NCBI GenBank assembly: GCA_026025795.1
Contig: JAPEUG010000116.1
Span: forward strand, 1-42,002
Length of the DNA: 42,002 nt
From: Thelocarpon superellum
Lineage: Eukaryota
Direction: 5' to 3'
The position numbers and the translations under genes are program-made. Every line of letters starts with the position of its first letter. Position 1 is the stretch's first letter. Positions 17,061 to 28,411 of the stretch are shown here, piece after piece. Below the pieces are notes generated by a model. It made no database searches. It was not told where the DNA came from and worked only from the letters and a program-made list of their open reading frames with translations.

Positions 17061-18757
17061 ATGAGCCTCGTACGGTACCCGGGCGTGCTGCACTCATTCT
17101 CCGGCAGTGGCGTCCGTCGGTCGCTCATCGCCTCACAAAGATGGTCATACGGCAGAAGCGCAGCGTATCGACGGATAGCGAGCCGCGCATGGCCGTCGGA
17201 CCTATCGTCGCGACGACCGAACTCTTTCCCAGCGAACCCGAACCCATCGATCCTCTCGGCGCTTCCCTCCCGATGGGGTCGCAACGACCGCTTCATCGTC
17301 TCGAGGGCGCATCCGCTGCATACGTCTGCCTCCCGCGGACAAGATCAGAGACCCAATGCAAAGAGCCCGGATGAGTCGCATGCCACCAATGAGCCGCCCA
17401 AGGAGTCATCCGGCAAGGAGGAGGAGAGCCAGCGGGGTCGTGAGGAGGGCGAGAAGCAAGGGGAGTTCGACAAGAAGGAGGATGCCCCGCCGCCGCCGCC
17501 GCCGCCGCCACCACACGGCAGTAAGACGCCGTGGCAGGTCTTCACCGAGACCTTGAAGACGGAGTTCCAGGCCTCCAAGGAATGGAACGAATCGACCAAA
17601 GCCCTGGCCTCGTCCGCCCATCAGTTCACCGAGAATGAATCGATCAAGCGAGCCCGGGCCGCCTATTCGGCGGCCTCGGGCGCCGCTACCTCGACCACAG
17701 GCACCGCCCTCCGCGGTACCGGCCGGGCCCTGGGCAAGACGGCCGCCTGGACCTGGGAGACGCCCGTGGTGCGGGGGGTGCGAGCGGGAGTCAACATGAC
17801 TGGTCGTGCCATCGAGGCCGGCACCCGGCCGGTGCGGGAGACGGAAGCGTACAAGAAGGCCGTGGGTGGCGTCAAGGACGTCATTGACGACGGTAGCAGC
17901 TCCAAATATGGTGGCTGGGTCGAGAAGGAGGAGCGTCGCAAGAAGCGCGAGTTGCGCGAGCTCGAGGAACTGAAACGCCACGGCCCACGCGGCCGTCGGG
18001 TGGAGAAGATGGAAGAGGACCCCGAGTCAGATTTGCCTGCCCCAGTCACTCACCAAGGCACAAGCTAATCCGAGGGCGTAGTGCGGGAACCAAGGTGACC
18101 TTGCACAAAGACGCGGCGTGGAAGGAGTCCTGGCGCGACTTCAAGGATTCCAGCCGAGTGATGCAGTCCCTCTTCAGCATCCAATCCACGTACAACGAGT
18201 CCGACAACCCCTTGATCTCGACCGCGCGCAGCATCTCAGACCGGGTGGCGGGCTTCTTCGCCGAAAATGAGACGGCCATGGTGATCAAGCGCTTCCGCGA
18301 GATGGACCCGAGCTTCCAGATCGAGCCCTTTCTCCGCGAGATGCGCGAGTACATCCTGCCCGAGGTGCTCGACGCCTATGTCAAGGGCGACACGGAGACG
18401 CTCAAGCTCTGGCTCTCCGCCGCGCAGTACCAAGTCTACGCCGCCCTGGCTCAACAGTACACCACGGCGGGGCTGAAGTCCGACGGCCGCATCCTCGACA
18501 TCCGCCACGTCGACATCCTCTCCGCCCGCCTCCTTGACCCCGGCGAGGTGCCCGTCTTCATCATCACCTGTCGCACGCAGGAGGTGCATGTCTACCGCAA
18601 CGCCAAGACCGATGACCTGGCTGCCGGCATGGAAGACAAGGTGCAGCTGGTGACCTACGCCATTGGCGTCACCCGCATCCCCGAGGACGTCAACAACCCC
18701 GAGACGCGCGGCTGGCGCTTGATTGAATTGCAGAAGAGCGGGCGCGACTACATATAA
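17061..18757 (+). CDS. TIM44: Mitochondrial import inner membrane translocase subunit Tim44, 2 exons
   Basis: Intron 18026-18081. Motifs KTPWQVFTETLK, KYGGWVEKEERR, REYILPEVLDAY, CRTQEVHVYRN; Arg/Ser-rich presequence. An in-frame ATG also exists at 16860, so the start is uncertain. Confidence 0.93.
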
Positions 18758-19385: not shown

Positions 19386-19616
19386 GGGCGTGCTCCGCAG
19401 TAGAATATTTAGGACAGTACAAAGTGGTGGGAGCGCTCCATGATCGACTGTCTGGCAATGCTAGAGGCGAAGGGCGTGCTCCACGACAGAATATCTAGAA
19501 CAATACAAAAGGGTGGGAGCGCTCCATAATCGATTGTCTTGTAAGACTAGAATTGAAGGGCATGCTCCAGGGTAGACTGTCTAGCACAACTACTTGGGTT
19601 TGGAAAGGGGTGCTCC
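19386..19616. repeat. Degenerate tandem repeat with 43-bp period arranged as an 86-bp higher-order unit
   Basis: GCTCC cores at 19392, 19435, 19478, 19521, 19564 (43-bp spacing) and 19612. Segments 19386-19471 and 19472-19557 align colinearly. Confidence 0.8.
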
Positions 19617-20195: not shown

Positions 20196-23146
20196 ATGTT
20201 GATGGATCAGACGACGGGTGGTGAAGATGATCACGAGAAACATGGGCTCTGCTTGCTGTCGCTGGGTACGGTTGGCAGCTTCACCACCCATATTGTTGCT
20301 GACGGGTGTCGTGATAGACGGCGGTGGTGTGCGTGGTCTATCCACGCTATATATCCTTCACGGTCTCATGAAAAGCATCAATTCTCGGCGAAAGGGGAGG
20401 GGACTGGCGCCGGTGAAACCCTGCGAGGTGTTTGACCTCATCGGAGGAACATCCACCGGAGGGCAAGTCCTGCTGCAACTGTCCCTTCAAAGCTGACTAA
20501 TACCTCGTAGCCTCATCGCCATCATGCTTGGTTGACTAGAGATGGATGTGGACTCGTGTATCAAGGCTTATACCAGCTTGATGGAAGACATCTTCGGAAA
20601 AAGTTCCACGCCGATTGACTGGAAGCTTGACGTCAAGGGTCGATTTAGCTCGGCCTCGCTGGAGAAGGCCATCGAAAGCCTGATACCGGCCAGCGAAGAC
20701 AAGGAGACGGCCTTGCTCAACGATAGCCGTTCGGACCGAAGACCGTGTCGAGTGTACGTCCGCTGTCGTGGCGGAAGGTCCTGGCTCTCAGCTGACGGAT
20801 GCAGCTTTGTGTGTGCAGTGAGGAAGGGTAACACCTCGCTGGCGAGGTTCCGCAGCTACGAATCCGACGCCCTGATGGACGAGGGAGGCGTCACCATCTG
20901 GCAGGCGGCCCGCGCCACCTCGGCTGCAACCTCCTTCTTTGATCCCATCACCATCGGAGAAGGCTATGCCGGACGAGAATATGTCGACGGGGCGTTGGGG
21001 TGCAACAATCCGCTGGACGAGGTGTGGACGGAAGCCCACGACATCTGGACGGAGGGTCAGAGTAGACTGGAAGCGAGGCTCAAGTGCGTGGTGTCCATCG
21101 GGACGGGGAACCCGGGGACGTCCGCCGTCGGCGACAAACCCTGGTCCATTGTCGAGACGCTCAAAGGCATTGCCACGCAAACGGAGAATACCGAGCGGCT
21201 CTTCGCCATGAGTCATCCAGAGCTCCTCAGCCCGAAGCGGTGCTACTTTCGTTTCAACGTGGAACAGGGGCTGCAGGGCGTGGGGTTGGAGGAGTTCAAA
21301 CGCCAGGGCGATATCTTTAATGCCACTGCCAAATACTTGAACGACAATCAACTCCTCAAGATACAGTTTCGAGAGTGCGCGCTCATTCTGAGCCACAAGG
21401 AATGTACGTTTAACGAAGACTTTGCTTAGCGGGGGGAGACTCGTTCACCAGGGTTGACATGACCACAGATTGGCAGGGCAGCGGCCATGCGGATGGTGCG
21501 TCACTGGATTTGGCACAGAGACCGAAGATGGGGGTCTCCGGCACCGATCGTAGCCTAGCGTCGACGCCGGCGCCGGCGCCTGAACCCGAGAAGTATGTGT
21601 GCCTCTGCAGTCACTGTCTTCAAGGTCAGTGGAGCCCCTTCGACGCGGTGCTGAGTTGCCCTTGACCATGCAGATAGGCATCAAGTACAAGGAGCGACTG
21701 TTTGTCTGTACGGAGTGTTTGTTGAATTATTGTCAAGTGTGTCGTGACCATCACGACTTCCATAACGAGTCCTTGATCTCGATTGTGGGCGAAGATATAT
21801 CCTGGAAGCTGGCTCAGCAGAGGCTGCTCATGTCGTGCGCCATCTGCCTGCGAATGATGGCTTACGCCGTTGCCTGCCAAGATTGTCCGCTCAAGCTCTG
21901 CGTGCCGTGTTCCACCATGCGAGGGAGACTGAAAGGCTGGATCACGGAGCATGCACCGTCGGGAAGCGTCCATCGATCCTACATCGAAACCCTCTCCCGA
22001 CCCTTCACGTGGAAACCGCCTCCACGAAAGCCGTGCACCTGCCGCATGGTGCGCGATCTGGTCGGCCACTGCGGCGGGTGCGGCACCCGTGAGTTGCCTG
22101 GCGGGAGGGAATCAACAAGACGACTAACGCGCCTCCAGCGCTGGGCATAGGCGCGACTTTCTACGAATGCATGGACTGCCAGCGCCAACACGGCTTCACC
22201 TGGAAGCTCTGTTCCGAATGCAATGAGCACGTGGATGGCGAGCACACCGCCCGTCATACCATGCAGGTCACCGTCTTCCGAAAGGGCCAGTTCGAGGCCG
22301 ACGAGGCGCACGATCAGATGAAGGATTCGTTGGCATGCACCGAATGCTCTGCCTCATTCGACCGTGGGTCATCTCACACGCGACTGCAACGCTGGTCTAA
22401 CGTTAGCCAGCGAGCCAAACCCCTCATCCGCCGCTGGTTGGGCATAAACACCTCACCTACGTTCGAGAGGTTGGGGACGCCTTCCTCGATGCGAGCCGTG
22501 GAGGCCAGTGGGACCTGTGCTCCAAGAGAGGCCTGCTCCTCTTCTATCCGCGGGAGATTGAAAGTGGTACCGGGGCGACCTGCCCGTGCGGCGAGCGTAC
22601 GTGTCATGACCCTCTCGACCAAGCTACGCCAGATTGCTGAGCTGAACAGCCGTCATCCTTCAAACGCTGGTGTCCGTCTGCTTCGATTGCGGCACCGTTC
22701 TCTGTGCCCTCTGCCGCCACCAGAAACGAGACTTTCATCGGCACGGCCTGACCACATGCCAACTGGTCGAAGCCGGACCAGGCGAGTGGTTCAACTGCAC
22801 CCGATGCGCCGCCAGTATGTCCATCACTCCTGCTTGGCCCGACGGGCCTCTTCTCACCGTGACCGCAGAGGAAACACGAGCAGAGTTCTGTGGTGGCGCT
22901 TGTCCCCGATGCAACGCGCTCATATGCAACGCGTGTCTCTTCAAGCAGCCGAATCATAGCAACTACTGCTGCACGAACCCTCCCACTCAGCCCCGATGGC
23001 TATTTGTGGCCTTTCGGAAGCAAACGAGGACGACGTACCTCCGATCGTCTCGCCTTTCCGGCCCTTCGCCGCGGCGGGTCGACGGCGTGACTCCTGTCAA
23101 GGCCGATGGCGTCCACCGCATGCTCAATCGTCTTTTCGGTTCGTGA
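20196..23146 (+). CDS. Patatin-like phospholipase fused to tandem ZZ-like Cys/His zinc fingers; 10 exons, about 825 codons, interrupted by one in-frame TGA (readthrough candidate or recent pseudogene)
   Basis: Exons 20196-20265, 20318-20462, 20511-20753, 20805-21403, 21469-21624, 21678-22088, 22139-22363, 22411-22596, 22650-22814, 22869-23146 join in frame. DGGGVRG, GTSTG and DGA motifs are intact. TGA at 20533-20535. C-half has repeated CxxC..CxxC..CxxC..H modules. Confidence 0.75.
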
Positions 23147-23818
23147 CGGCTTGACTCGGGCGTTTCCTTTGCAGACTTGGCCCCGGATTGGGTCCCCGCC
23201 GGCGACTTCCTATGGATGCTGTGCGTCGTGCACGTTGCATACTTCTTCTCCGTCCTTTTCGCATTCTTCCAAGGCGTTGCGTGTTTGCCTCTCAAGCAGA
23301 TCTACACGGCGTTCTACATGGGGGCTTTTCGTCGTGGTCAAGATGCGATACTGACGCTCGCTGTCCACCCTCTGCCTATTCTAGTTGAGGAAGGCCAGTT
23401 GGAGAAGGATAGGGTCCGAAAAGACAGCGTTCGAACGCGCAGGCACTTTGGCTCCCCAACGCCCCGGGCGCTGTCGTATGTCCATGCAGGAATGGGGAGG
23501 CGCCAGAAGTGGTGCCCGGATGCCGATTGAATGGGGGTGGGACGAGGACAAAGCGCAGCTGAAGCGGCGGGGTGATGCATGTACGAGAATGAGCATGAAC
23601 ACATATCGCCGGCCTTTCGCCGAGACAGAGTTTCTGCATGGTGTGGGAAAGCCGCTTTGAGTCAATGGATGCTCCATGACTTTGCCCACGAACATCTTTA
23701 CGATTCACGTGAGAGAAACTTGCTAGCAGCAGGCGCCCCCCCTGGACCCCTATACTTCGGGTGCAGAGTAGTCGCACTCGGAGTCCGCCAAGTGCACATC
23801 ATGTGACCTAGGCTTCTT

Positions 23819-23959
23819 TCACTCCGTAATCAGGTGACGGGGAGCGAGACACCTAGGGATAGGACTCCTGGTGCCGATATGTGCAAGTCACTCCGTAATC
23901 AGGTGATGGGGAGCGAGACACCTAGGGATTGGACTGCTGGTGCCGATATGTGCAAGTCA
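23819..23959. repeat. 69-bp tandem duplication (2 copies, 3 mismatches)
   Basis: TCACTCCGTAATCAGGTGA...GATATGTGCAAG occurs at 23819 and again at 23888. Confidence 0.9.
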
Positions 23960-24208: not shown

Positions 24209-24260
24209 AGACGGACAGACCCAGACGCACCCAGACGGACCCAGACGGACCCAGACGGAC
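24209..24260. repeat. 10-bp minisatellite (CCAGACGGAC)n
   Basis: About 4-5 near-perfect units read directly. Confidence 0.75.
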
Positions 24261-24467
24261 TGTTGATCTCCATTACGCCATACCAGAACACCGGGACCAT
24301 TGGGACCACCGACGAAACATCAGATCCCTGCCAGCACCACCACTCACCACGCCCACGCACCACTTGGACCTTGCTCGTGCGTCACATTGGCTTCCCCCGT
24401 CACCAACCTGCTACCACATGGGCGAGCCGCGCCAGCTCCGCCAGATCTCTGCGCGCATGCCGGATGA

Positions 24468-27400
24468 ATGCACCCTCTAAATCCTTTCCTACGTGCCTTC
24501 TTCCGAAGCAACCTCCCTGCGCAGTGTAGCCCCGCTGCGGAGCACGTACGTGCCTCGCCTCGCCCTCTTGGGCCTCCGCTGTGCACGCGTTCAAAGGCCC
24601 GCGTGCGCACCCTCATGGCTGACGTGCGTGCCCATGACAGATCCTCCTCGTCCCCACCACCGAGATCCTCCTGACCACGCGCGACGCCGACTCCAACGCC
24701 CCCTACGCCGACCTCGCCAGTGCCGATGATTTCCTGGGCAGTCATGTGCTGCGCATGCCCGGCACCCCCCTGCCCGGCGCGGCCAAAGATGCAGGCACGG
24801 TGCGGGACAACCGGGGCAAAGCAAAGCAATTCACCACCATGAATGGCCGCACCGTCGTCGTCAAGGACAACATGGTGTACAGCAACAAAGGTCAACCGCC
24901 CGTCCGCAGAAGTCATGCCCCCTCCGCTGACCATGGTCTCCGACACCTCCTAGGCTTCAAGCATCTGAACCAAGTACACTTGCTGACAGATGCGCTGTGG
25001 TACCCGGACGGTCTCGACGCCCAGCATTGGCTCATCTACTACATCTCCCGGCCCCTGGTCGGCTCGATGGACGTCATCAAGATCATCCCCGCCGTGCTGT
25101 CCCACCATCCGCCATCACCTTCGTCGCCCTCGACCGCCGCGAGCAGTCCCATCGGGGCCGAGCCGAAGAAGGACATCAAGACCTTCAACGACTTGCTGAA
25201 CGCCTTCCCCATGATTGCGCGGCAGATGCAAACCGGTCTGGAGCGCGTGTTCCACGACTTCGCCGCCGCGATGGAGAAGGCCGGCGTCATCAACGGCGTG
25301 CCGTCCGCGGACACGGATGGGTCCACGGCGGTGGAATCGTCGGCTGCATCCACGGGGAGCGATCGATCCAACGGCCATGCAAAGGCACCAGCCGCCCTGG
25401 TCCCCGTCGAGGACGAAAAGGAGATGGCCATGCGGGCCGCGCTGGAGACCGCCGTCACGGCCGCCATCGACCTCTTCCAGCTGGTGGACAAGCAGCAACT
25501 CTCGCTGCTGGGCGCCACCACCGACCTCACCGGACCGCTGGTGGAACGGCTCATCGAGCGGTACGTGACGGAGCAGCTGCACGACGCCCTCGTCTTCCCC
25601 ACGCTGTGTGCACTGCGACGCGCCGATGACCAAGAGCTGGAGCATCGCATCCGCCAGAGGGAAGACGTCGACGTGTCGCAGGTGGGCATCGCCGTCCAGG
25701 GCGGCTTGCGCGGCAAGCACGAGCTCATCCAGCGCCTGCAAAAGGCGGTGGAGGCCTTTCGTCGTCTCAGCGCCGCCGGTAGCCCGCAGGAGATGGTCGA
25801 GATCCTCCTGGAGACGGAGCGCATCGTCACCATGGTCAGTCCCGACCGGCCTGGCGGCCCCGCGGACGCCAGCGTAACGGAGAAGCCGCCGTCGGTCATG
25901 ACCATCAACGCCGACACCCTGGTTTCGCTGCTGCTCGTCGTCGTCATCCGCGCCCAGGTCCGCCATCTGCACGCCCGGCTGTCGTACATGCGCCACTTCA
26001 TCTTCCTCGACGACGTCGAAGGCGGCGAGATGGGCTATGCCCTGAGCACCTTCGAGGCCGTCCTTTCCTATCTGGCCAAGGACTCGGGTGGCTTGCGCAA
26101 AGCGAGTCGCCGCAATCGCGCCCTATGGCAAGCGACGCGCGATGGGCAGCTGGTCGACATGAAAGCCATCCTCGAGCCCGGCCTCTGCATCACGCCGGAA
26201 GCAACCCTGGTGGACGAACCGGCGCCACTCGCCTCACGCCCGCCCTCGCCCCCATCCTCCCCTCCCCCAGATCCACCACCCAAGAGCGGGGATGAAGTCG
26301 ACGAGGCGCGCCTGAGCTCCGCCCTCAAGCGCGTGCTGCCCATGCACCCCCATGAACCGACGCAGGCAAACGGCGAGGACGTCGGCCCGACCGTGCGACG
26401 AAAGACGGTGTCGATGGATACCCAGAGCGTGTCGAGCTCGTCGACCTTCTCCCTGCGCTCACGCACCACGACGTTGAACTCGCGCTGGAGCGATGGCGGC
26501 CTGGAAGGAGACACGTCCATCGACAAGCTCTCCAAGACGCAGGACGCCACGGGCGAGTCCGTGCCCATGATGGCGATCCAGAGCCGGCAGCCAGCGGCGT
26601 TGCGATATCTTCTAGGCTTGACCGACTACTTCCCCGTGAGCACGCTCATGGATGATGTCGACAACGAGGGCACCACCTTGCTCAGCGCCGCCATCCAGCT
26701 GGGCCAGGACGATCTGATCGCGCCCGTGCTCGACACGATCGGCCGGGCCGCGGATCCCGACGCCGTCGCCCATTATCTGGCGCAGCAGGACGTGCGGGGC
26801 CGGAGCGCGGCGCACTACCTCTTCAACGCGCCGCAGCTGATTGCGCGCCTCGGGCGCTTCCTGCCATGGCGGTTGAAGGACCGGAACGGGCAGACCCCGC
26901 TCTTTGCCCTCTGTCGCTCCTATGACCATCCGCACTACCGCGACATGATCGACCACGCCTTGTCGGCGGCGCAGGTGACGCAACCTGATGGCCTGCCGCT
27001 CCACCTGGATGATCATGTGGACGGCAAGGGCAACTCCCTGCTGCACATCGTGCACGATCCCCCGTTGGCGCGGCGGATCATGGACGATTGCGACACGGAC
27101 GTCAACGCCACCAACGACAAGCGTTTCACGGCGCTGATGGTCGCGAGCAAGTACGGCCGGCTCGACACCGTGCGGACACTGTTTAGCGATCCGCGCGTCG
27201 ATCTAGCGGTGCGCGAGGCTCGCGGGCTGACGGCAGTCGAGTTGGCCAAGGATGACGAGGTGCGCAACCGGATCGACGACCTCGTCCTGCTGTCCGACCC
27301 CGGCAGCGTCGATGGACGGACGACGGCCGTGGTGCGTTCCTTCTTCGTCGAGGACGCTTCGGTCCGGCTGGTGCTCAAGTCAGCCGCCCCGGCGTCGGCC

Positions 27401-28411
27401 TCGACCATTACCATCACGACGAGCCGACGGTCGCTGGCGGACTTTGAGAATCTGGCCAAGTGGCTGGCCATCGAGCACCCCGCCTCCTGGCTCCCGCCCG
27501 TGCCCACCTTCCGCTCCGCCTTCCAGATTGCGTCGAAACCGTCGCGGGCGGTGCTCCGCGACATCCAGCAGCGCATGGACCGATTCTTGAAGGTGCTCCT
27601 GTCGCACTCGACCTTTGGCACGCACGAGCTGGTGTGGGAGTTCTTCTTGGCGCCGGAGATCCAGCCGGAGATGATGGCGGAGCGCAGCCGCAAGAAGGCG
27701 GACATGCGCGCCGAGATGGTCAAGGAGGAGTACGCGCCGATGCAGGAGCTGCGCGAGGTGGAGATCTTCGTGGGCCACGCGCGCGACGCCATCCGCGGCG
27801 TGCACCACGCCACCGCCAGCGTCGTGCGACGCACCAACACCCTCCGCATCATCCACACCGACCTGGCCGACGCCGCCTCGCTCACCGCCCGCGCCTTCAG
27901 CACCGTCGCCTTCCTCCCCCCCTCGCACATCCGCGCCCTCGCCCGCTACGCCATCGCCCTCGCCCCCACGGAGAGCGCGCCCTACGCGCTCTTCTACCAA
28001 GACGTGCAATGCATCGCCACCACCATCACCGCCATGCTCGCCGCGCTCGCCCGACCAGGCACGCTCATCAGCTCGATGAGCTCAGCGTCCAAGGCCATCG
28101 ACCGCCACATGTCCTCCGTGCGGCGCTCGGACCGGTGGCCGCTGGGTCTGATGGACGAGACACGCAACAAGCTGCACCAGGAAGCGGCGGACCGGGTGCG
28201 CGCCAGCCAGCGCGACCTGCTCTTGCTCGGATCCGAGCTGCGCTACACGCAGCAGACCGTTGCGGCCGAGCTGGCCGGGTGGCAGGACCTGCATGCCAAA
28301 ATGGCCCGGAGGGCCCTGCGCACCCTCGCGCAGCGCACGGTGGTCGCGGAGCGCGCGAGGCTGGAGAGCTTGCGGCGTGCGGTGCGTGGCGTACTACCGG
28401 GGCGGGTGTAG
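24468..28411 (+). CDS. VRL1: VPS9-domain/ankyrin-repeat/PX-like endosomal Rab GEF (UPF0507/Vrl1 family), 3 exons
   Basis: Exons 24468-24545, 24641-24890, 24954-28411. Starts MHPLNPFLRAFFRS; VPS9 core INADTLVSLLLVVVIR...GEMGYALSTFEAV; ankyrin repeats (NGQTPL, KGNSLLH, FTALMVASKYG); PX-like segment (RRSLADFENLAKWL, HELVWEFF). Confidence 0.88.

Follow-up and report, generated by a model that had tools for sequence, protein, structure and literature searches.

A candidate NOD-less patatin gene with a tandem array of Cys/His modules in the lichen-forming ascomycete Thelocarpon superellum

The DNA analysed here, referred to as the window, is the 42,002-nt contig JAPEUG010000116.1 of Thelocarpon superellum (assembly GCA_026025795.1), a GC-rich (~60%) eukaryotic sequence. 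At 20196–23146 on its forward strand lies a predicted gene in which a patatin phospholipase domain is followed by an array of six Cys/His modules (M1–M6). Its sequence leads us to favour, with moderate confidence, the reading that this is one gene and a variant of the PLP-1-type patatin NLRs (NOD-like receptors, NOD being the nucleotide-binding oligomerization domain) that lacks the NOD. The spliced model has nine exons and eight introns and runs through 844 codons in a single frame, with a predicted product of ~843 residues. A first-pass annotation, made from the DNA letters alone, had proposed the same start, end and patatin-to-array junction (21403/21469), and the nine-exon model reproduces all of these. 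The features are as follows; X2 and X3 are two moss-metagenome runs whose contigs cover part of the same locus.

20196–20265, + strand: exon 1, ATG, N-terminus MLMDQ...GLCLLSL, ending in phase 1; its LSL/DGGGVRG junction is as in the relatives P0005 and P0017.
20266–20317, + strand: intron 1, 52 nt, GTACGG...GCTGACG...ATAG; holds the X2/X3 variant 20292 A>G.
20318–20462, + strand: exon 2, N-terminal part of patatin (Pfam profile positions 3–38), with DGGGVRG and the GTSTG serine motif at 20446–20460.
20463–20510, + strand: intron 2, 48 nt, GC–AG, GCAAGT...GCTGACT...GTAG; its removal restores GTSTGG/LIAIMLG as in relatives.
20484, + strand: variant C>T in intron 2.
20511–20753, + strand: exon 3, patatin; carries the in-frame stop.
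20533–20535, + strand: codon 80, an in-frame TGA where Arg is conserved; T in the likely source run, C (CGA) in X2 and X3.
20754–20804, + strand: intron 3, 51 nt, GTACGT...GCTGACG...GCAG; the ORF (open reading frame)-type call P0002 reads through the homologous position.
20805–21403, + strand: exon 4, remainder of patatin (profile positions 87–191), catalytic-Asp motif DGA at 20986–20994; ends ...LSHKE plus T, phase 1.
21404–21468, + strand: intron 4, the predicted patatin-to-array junction, 65 nt, GTACGT...GTTGACA...ACAG, at a conserved phase-1 position.
21403–21429, + strand: codons of the unspliced read-through (last exon-4 base included), CTFNEDFA and then TAG at 21427–21429; a tail of the [DN]-F-[SA]-stop type.
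21469–21624, + strand: exon 5, a linker of ~45 residues and then the first Cys cluster of M1, CLCSHC.
21625–21677, + strand: intron 5, 53 nt, phase 1, two codons past the first Cys pair of M1; this junction is common to the NCBI model P0001.
21678–22088, + strand: exon 6, remainder of M1, whole of M2 and first pair of M3.
22089–22138, + strand: intron 6, 50 nt, phase 1; with its other in-frame acceptor the next exon would begin at 22151.
22139–22363, + strand: exon 7, remainder of M3 and first pair of the degenerate M4; synonymous variant at 22233.
22364–22410, + strand: intron 7, 47 nt, phase 1.
22411–22596, + strand: exon 8, degenerate M4 and first pair of M5 (CPC).
22597–22649, + strand: intron 8, 53 nt, phase 1; the donor stays valid with variant 22600 C>T (GTACGT to GTATGT).
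22650–23146, + strand: exon 9, remainder of M5, M6, then a tail of 55 residues without Cys, and the stop codon (23144–23146).

Seven introns have GT–AG ends and intron 2 has GC–AG ends, and a CTRAC-like branch site is present in each. For the X2 and X3 contigs that cover intron 2, no difference is listed in its GCAAGT donor. The ATGs used by rival models, one in the region of 21459 and one at 21528, are assigned to exon 5. At the 3′ end, the stop at 23144–23146 is common to X2 and X3, and an intron of 32–36 nt that would remove it was dropped as too short. The last-exon frame stays open for 127 codons directly after this stop (23147–23527, + strand) and codes for a hydrophobic stretch without a Pfam match; it is probably a chance opening in GC-rich DNA.

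Patatins are marked by a Gly-rich oxyanion motif, a GxSxG serine and a DG[AG] aspartate, and the spliced reading contains DGGGVRG, GTSTG and DGA (within YVDGALGCNNP). Because the domain is interrupted by introns, each piece scores alone, and both pieces are at or above the gathering score of Patatin (PF01734, 27.7 bits), with 29.1 bits at 20536–21426 and 27.7 bits at 20311–20463. A HMMER search with the 289-residue reading of 20536–21403 returned 3081 proteins at E ≤ 1e-3. The two nearest relatives are short ORF-type fragments (P0002, 64% identity; P0003, 66%), and the next-nearest, at 40–49% identity, include the N-terminal domains of NB-ARC/TPR proteins. The first-pass annotation had called the domain a fungal NLR effector, and a domain scan of 30 long relatives bears this out: 22 carry NB-ARC (17) or NACHT/NPHP3_N (5), mostly together with TPR, ankyrin or WD40 repeats. 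The rest have AAA_16 with TPR (two), patatin alone (two), or TPR only, ankyrin only, a GTPase or an RGS domain (one each). Partners without a NOD in the same patatin clade comprise an MMR_HSR1/AIG1-type GTPase, an RGS domain and ankyrin alone (P0050, P0051 and P0042), so the patatin cassette is evidently promiscuous. The comparison with NLR patatins that the first-pass annotation had proposed gave the same picture, in that a maximum-likelihood tree of 117 rows joins the window domain to P0002 and P0003 (SH-aLRT, the Shimodaira–Hasegawa-like approximate likelihood-ratio test, 99) within a group of 55 rows (support 93), many of them NLR patatins. The tree was built quickly and rooted at the midpoint, its careful search is unfinished, and the P-loop pattern used for labelling under-labels NLRs. 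The sequence places the window domain with the PLP-1 kind of patatin, the fungal NLR-effector type.

Fungal NLRs are described as proteins made up of an effector, a NOD and repeats. In the literature, NB-ARC accompanies patatin "almost invariably" (PMC4986451), Sordariales patatins have NB-ARC in 95% of cases (PMC12258605), and PLP-1 is a patatin–NB-ARC–TPR receptor whose cell death requires patatin activity (PMC12881547). The window gene shares with the PLP-1, HET-Z1 and vic2 type of NLR the patatin effector clade and the exon boundary that closes the patatin module. Unlike them, it has no NB-ARC or NACHT and no TPR, ankyrin or WD40 repeats, and carries the Cys/His array instead. No Pfam NTPase (NB-ARC/NACHT) was detected in any piece of the gene that was scanned, the gene has no C-terminal TPR, ankyrin or WD40 repeats, and the window's only ankyrin repeats belong to a separate VPS9 gene. 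When 14 full-length NLR relatives were compared by tblastn with the whole 42 kb, matches fell only at 20278–21435, with no remnant of a NOD or of repeats. The earlier description of the gene as NOD-less therefore holds for the gene and for the window.

The array that follows the patatin domain consists of these modules:

21600–21763, + strand: M1, three Cys pairs, then His.
21836–21973, + strand: M2, three Cys pairs, then His.
22070–22257, + strand: M3, three Cys pairs, then His.
22336–22544, + strand: M4, degenerate, with the first pair and one later Cys only, most ligands lost.
22581–22744, + strand: M5, three Cys pairs, then His.
22796–22969, + strand: M6, three Cys pairs, one His, then CC.

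About five Cys modules and a partial one had been noted at first pass, which agrees with the five complete modules and the degenerate M4 found here. Over 395 residues the array has 40 Cys, 19 His and 15 CxxC pairs, a number reached by none of 10,000 composition shuffles (mean 3.9, maximum 12). The ligands are spaced as C-x2-C, ~9–12 residues, C-x2-C, ~4–10 residues and C-x2-C, followed by His...His; a search pattern of this order (C-x1-2-C...CxxC...CxxC...H...H) matches four stretches, with M6 a near-match. Four modules thereby show the cross-brace order of ligands (six Cys, two His), and M6 nearly does. The four introns inside the array are all phase 1, each lying 2–5 codons past a module's opening Cys pair, and the patatin–array intron is likewise phase 1; M2 and M6 have no intron after their first Cys pair. 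Since every array exon is phase 1–1, the exons would be freely shuffleable. The first-pass annotation had suggested exon-level duplication of the modules. Its intron positions stand and share one phase, but no similarity is left between the modules at the DNA level (best pair 30 nt at 70%), so that duplication, if any, is old.

The modules are probably C6H2 cross-brace-type fingers, similar by ligand spacing to ZZ, B-box and UBR fingers. The more specific earlier label of ZZ-like fingers was not borne out: no Pfam threshold was met and the searches of the Protein Data Bank (PDB) were not significant, leaving the ligand spacing and some weak leads. The same ligand pattern also fits B-box1, zf-C6H2 and AN1-like fingers and is therefore not specific to ZZ. 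Pfam ZZ (PF00569) had no match at E ≤ 1 on the spliced public protein P0001, and no module reached the cut-off of B-box (PF00643 or PF22586). Module by module, the Pfam matches were all below threshold: zf-UBR (E 0.0016), zf_RING-like (0.0034), FYVE_2 (0.013), ANCHR-like B-box (0.016, in two of five modules), ZZ_ADA2 (0.022; 15.3 bits against a cut-off of 27.5) and zf-B_box (0.037). The window modules resemble ZZ, B-box and UBR-box fingers in ligand order and spacing but differ in falling below every gathering threshold. A phmmer search of the PDB with the array found no match at E ≤ 10, and a six-module profile gave no significant PDB match, its best being ribosomal zinc ribbons (E 0.046) and p300 (0.17). 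The structure prediction proposed at first pass could be made only at low confidence. Single-sequence AlphaFold2 of the array gave a pLDDT (predicted local distance difference test) of 35, M2 with four other modules as alignment gave 50, and Foldseek against the PDB from a low-confidence model returned 27 rows of mixed zinc fingers (best E 2.3), none of them ZZ. Only a language-model feature search pointed positively to ZZ, its nearest named clusters being of that family (0.86, 0.86 and 0.83), and the tool itself grades such scores as no more than a lead. ZZ fingers, which bind two zinc ions in a treble-clef or cross-brace fold, and UBR boxes are readers of N-terminal peptides; assembly is the task of B-boxes.

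The join between patatin and array rests on intron 4, which has a strong donor (GAAT/GTACGT), a branch site and an acceptor (ACAG/AT). The same phase-1 base was examined in 26 related metagenome loci aligned to the junction. GT occurs there in 21 of the 26 and GC in 1, where ~1 in 16 would be expected by chance; several of these loci are near-identical, and we read them as ~8 distinct sequence groups. The related loci have an intron of ~50–180 nt at this point and then an exon encoding ...GLGGIGKTQLA..., identified by Pfam as NB-ARC or AAA_16 in all four that were scanned. The earlier proposal that the Cys-rich ORFs splice in frame onto patatin is thus supported by prediction, with one frame through eight introns and a conserved phase-1 intron position. 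An alternative mini-intron of 26 nt (21404–21429), also in frame with the array, was dropped as far shorter than the 47–65 nt of the others.

Codon 80 of the gene, between GTSTGGLIAIMLG and LEMDVD, is TGA (20533–20535), where relatives have Arg. Contigs of the likely source run (X1) have T only at this site, at a word depth of 163. The X2 and X3 contigs, which come from one different study and have a depth of ~4, have C, so that an allele reading CGA at codon 80 exists in other samples; sharing a study and being shallow, X2 and X3 are two weak witnesses rather than a population survey. An acceptor at 20539 that would bypass the TGA was dropped because it shifts the frame, and no alternative splice removes the stop. 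Since the TGA falls downstream of the catalytic Ser and upstream of the catalytic Asp, the allele is truncated between them and this genome's copy is predicted to be null, whereas the catalytic dyad of the lipase domain appears intact in the CGA-reading allele. The first-pass annotation was right that the exons share one frame, but it had overlooked this stop. The other 13 differences, from X2, X3 and X4 contigs at a depth of ~4, comprise 3 intronic, 6 synonymous and 4 non-synonymous changes and no indels. Per site these amount to 6/453 synonymous against 4/1444 non-synonymous (Fisher p = 0.015) and 3/254 intronic bases, and the synonymous excess suggests that the gene, taken whole, is under purifying selection. 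Two stretches, 21272–21780 and 22394–22495, have no cover in the X2 and X3 contigs.

A reading that we consider doubtful, yet worth setting out in full, is that two adjacent genes lie here, a patatin of ~362 residues ending at TAG 21427–21429 and an orphan Cys-rich gene running from ATG 21459 or 21528 to 23146. The donor-like GTACGT would in that case amount to no more than a codon pair for Cys and Thr, or to a relic of the ancestral state. Read unspliced, the window patatin ends ...KECTFNEDFA-stop, and its closest relatives appear to end ...KECMSIEGLS and ...KECVCIEDFS. Among 97 relatives aligned to the junction, 27 end 2–15 residues later, and 13 of these short-tailed proteins have F or Y at position −2, typically as [DN]-F-[SA], a form that the unspliced window tail fits. 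Several tailed proteins are stand-alone NCBI models of 329–359 residues from assemblies of good quality, in Penicillium, Xylaria, Aureobasidium (a 19-member cluster), Elsinoe and Didymella. Moreover, the NCBI pipeline opens its array model at ATG 21528, and no relative carries the fusion. Against two genes, the gap from the patatin stop (21429) to the first array-frame ATGs is 30 or 99 nt and leaves no room for a terminator and a promoter, whereas the flanking spacers measure ~1.4 kb (from the end of the Tim44 ORF at 18754) and ~1.3 kb (to the VPS9 ATG at 24468). The array frame already runs open from 21414, upstream of its first ATG, and the 21528 start of the public model is probably explained by the upstream TGA, which broke any longer frame. 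The first residues of the tails ([C/S/R]-[M/V]-T-initial codon) are the translation of a donor of the form xGT[A/G]TGT, and the same junction is spliced in relatives. Finally, at least two of the tail-bearing 90% clusters also contain longer spliced models that cross the junction, namely P0288 (Patatin plus NPHP3_N) and P0284 (~100 residues beyond the junction, with no further Pfam domain), so a short tail does not appear to block splicing there. The short patatins (Aureobasidium pullulans, 334 residues; Penicillium cataractarum, 359 residues) resemble the window gene in family and, if it is left unspliced, in tail, but the window has in-frame exons 30–99 nt downstream. The KEC... tails of P0002, P0003 and P0005 were considered as proof of a gene end at 21429, a view overturned by the DNA of related loci and by the longer cluster members. 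Read-through of the conserved intron often ends in the [DN]-F-[SA]-stop tail (P0005, P0044, P0061, P0062, P0077, P0079, P0089, P0093 and P0128; loci L003 and L032), also at loci with NB-ARC or NACHT exons downstream. At NLR loci this tail may be the sign of a conserved isoform that retains the intron and yields a free patatin.

That patatin and array are a decaying relic, no longer functional in the species, with the nonsense codon as one step of decay, strikes us as improbable. The in-frame TGA occurs throughout the source run, M4 is stripped of most of its ligands, the array has no relatives, and two related NLR loci also have early stops past the junction (L020:5587–5760 and L033:5516–5700, 16–40 codons in). 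The close relatives L004, L005 and L007 are open for more than 210 codons, and L020 and L033 may be pseudogenised NLR copies. Decay is harder to reconcile with CGA at the stop in two runs of another study, with zero indels in the ~2.1 kb covered and with synonymous change exceeding non-synonymous, and all eight introns retain their signals and frame while every Cys pair is kept in five modules. The deposited model P0001 (1611 residues), the only public protein of this contig that the searches returned, offers a further reading, that the Cys-rich exons are the N-terminus of a VPS9–ankyrin–PX protein. It starts the array at ATG 21528, leaves it at 22861, crosses a 1.8-kb intron to 24641 and ends at 28408. 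We find this hardly credible, and the model that fuses the array to the VPS9–ankyrin–PX gene is an artefact. Its exit at 22861 cuts M6 in two after the first Cys pair, though the frame continues to complete the module, and its 1.8-kb intron compares with 47–65 nt for the eight introns of our gene. The 119 listed VPS9–ankyrin–PX orthologues have 916–1924 residues, mostly ~1300 (the nearest, of Thelocarpon impressellum, has 1291 at 66% identity), and none of the 119 has a CxxC. LNPF lies within the first 60 residues in 99 of them, the best-matching start being MHPLNPFLRAFFRS... (MxPLNPF-type), and the window encodes such an N-terminus, MHPLNPFLRAFFRS..., from ATG 24468 on, its GTACGT donor following 24545 and its acceptor preceding 24641. 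An origin of the modules in a transposon or a neighbouring gene, which the first-pass annotation had itself raised as a danger to its proposal, is likewise disfavoured by the lack of CxxC in the VPS9 orthologues and by a scan of 104 ORFs in the window, in which no transposon family was found. The wrong public annotation of the contig hides the architecture.

The neighbours of the gene are an aldo-keto reductase, a glycerol-3-phosphate dehydrogenase-like gene, YchF, Tim44, VPS9–ankyrin–PX, SGT, CK2-beta and other housekeeping genes. Both flanking spacers contain short tandem repeats that are mutually unrelated: units of 86 nt at 79% identity (19386–19557), units of 69 nt at 96% (23819–23956) and a run with 10-nt periodicity (24214–24263). 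The VPS9-domain neighbour is presumably of the Rab-exchange-factor type. This downstream vesicle-traffic gene (24468–28408) may be compared with the genetic pairing of PLP-1 with the SNARE SEC-9 (PMC12881547), a resemblance that may be due to chance.

No relative examined combines patatin with such an array, in agreement with the first-pass annotation, which recognised no characterised protein of this architecture. Zinc fingers were absent from the 30 long patatin relatives, and among the 150 nearest patatin representatives none had more than two CxxC and none had the array. A 490-residue query that includes M6 and the C-terminal tail did not find the array in any of 49 related loci (best tblastn E 1.5). 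A word-index search with exon 6 against longer proteins in a collection of 5.8 billion proteins returned the self record only, and residues 1–377 of P0001 against shorter proteins gave 2777 candidates, none at E ≤ 0.01; such searches may miss distant relatives, and these protein-collection queries ended before M6 and the C-terminal tail (22862–23143). The ESM Atlas gave no usable match to residues 1–376. In a full-text literature search that paired patatin with the ZZ-type zinc finger, the sole result was an unrelated review, and to the extent of these searches no publication describes a patatin that lacks a NOD and carries a six-module array. Sensor-side zinc fingers are not a new idea in themselves, since ZZ fingers on the C-terminal (sensor) side of fungal NLRs have been published. 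In Sordariales NLRs, zinc fingers are the commonest non-canonical domain, occurring in 57 NLRs, C-terminal in 52 and of the ZZ type in 17, with at most three in tandem; these NLRs keep the NOD, and 16 keep canonical repeats beside the finger (PMC12258605). The window gene is like them in the C-terminal position of its fingers and in their possible tandem repetition, but differs in being NOD-less, in having six modules and in the lack of a Pfam ZZ match.

Several points count against the one-gene reading that we favour. The whole of it depends on one locus in one metagenome-assembled genome, where the patatin–array join is predicted from the DNA and the second-sample contigs (X2 and X3) do not span the junction (21272–21780 uncovered). 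This genome's allele is truncated at codon 80. Left unspliced, the window ends in CTFNEDFA-stop, which matches the short-tail motif seen in 13 of 27 tailed relatives, several of them stand-alone patatins. Patatin with such an array occurs in no other sequence (0/30, 0/150 and 0/49), and the array has no detectable homologue, although patatin relatives of 64–66% identity exist. Within the array alone, two synonymous and two non-synonymous differences are uninformative on constraint, and the zinc binding and fold of the modules are predicted only (pLDDT 35 and 50).

If the one-gene reading is right, exon shuffling at the conserved phase-1 intron closing the patatin module would have exchanged NB-ARC–TPR for the array, and splicing would join patatin to the array in the transcript. 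The zinc modules may then recognise a ligand (a protein or a peptide) or bring about self-assembly, thereby setting where or when the Ser-Asp lipase acts on membranes; by analogy, this would be their counterpart to NOD oligomerisation in PLP-1. A role in defence or allorecognition, with the array gating the lipase, is what the first-pass annotation supposed and may apply here. More speculatively, and in our view fairly unlikely, the patatin executor may be a portable exon cassette at the phase-1 intron, here re-coupled to a zinc-module sensor or assembly unit, with the retained intron giving a second product, a free lipase.

Should these readings hold, the gene would encode a NOD-less immune-type lipase switched by ligand binding or clustering through zinc fingers, and the patatin effector could be driven without a NOD. 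Domain swaps would occur at a specific conserved phase-1 intron. In many fungal classes, a protein translated into that intron when it is retained would end in the conserved [DN]-F-[SA] tail, and patatin NLR loci may encode both a free lipase and a receptor-coupled lipase. The nonsense/intact polymorphism at codon 80 would offer a natural null allele for comparison. Zinc fingers, known as extra C-terminal parts of some fungal NLRs, would be able to form the whole sensing part.

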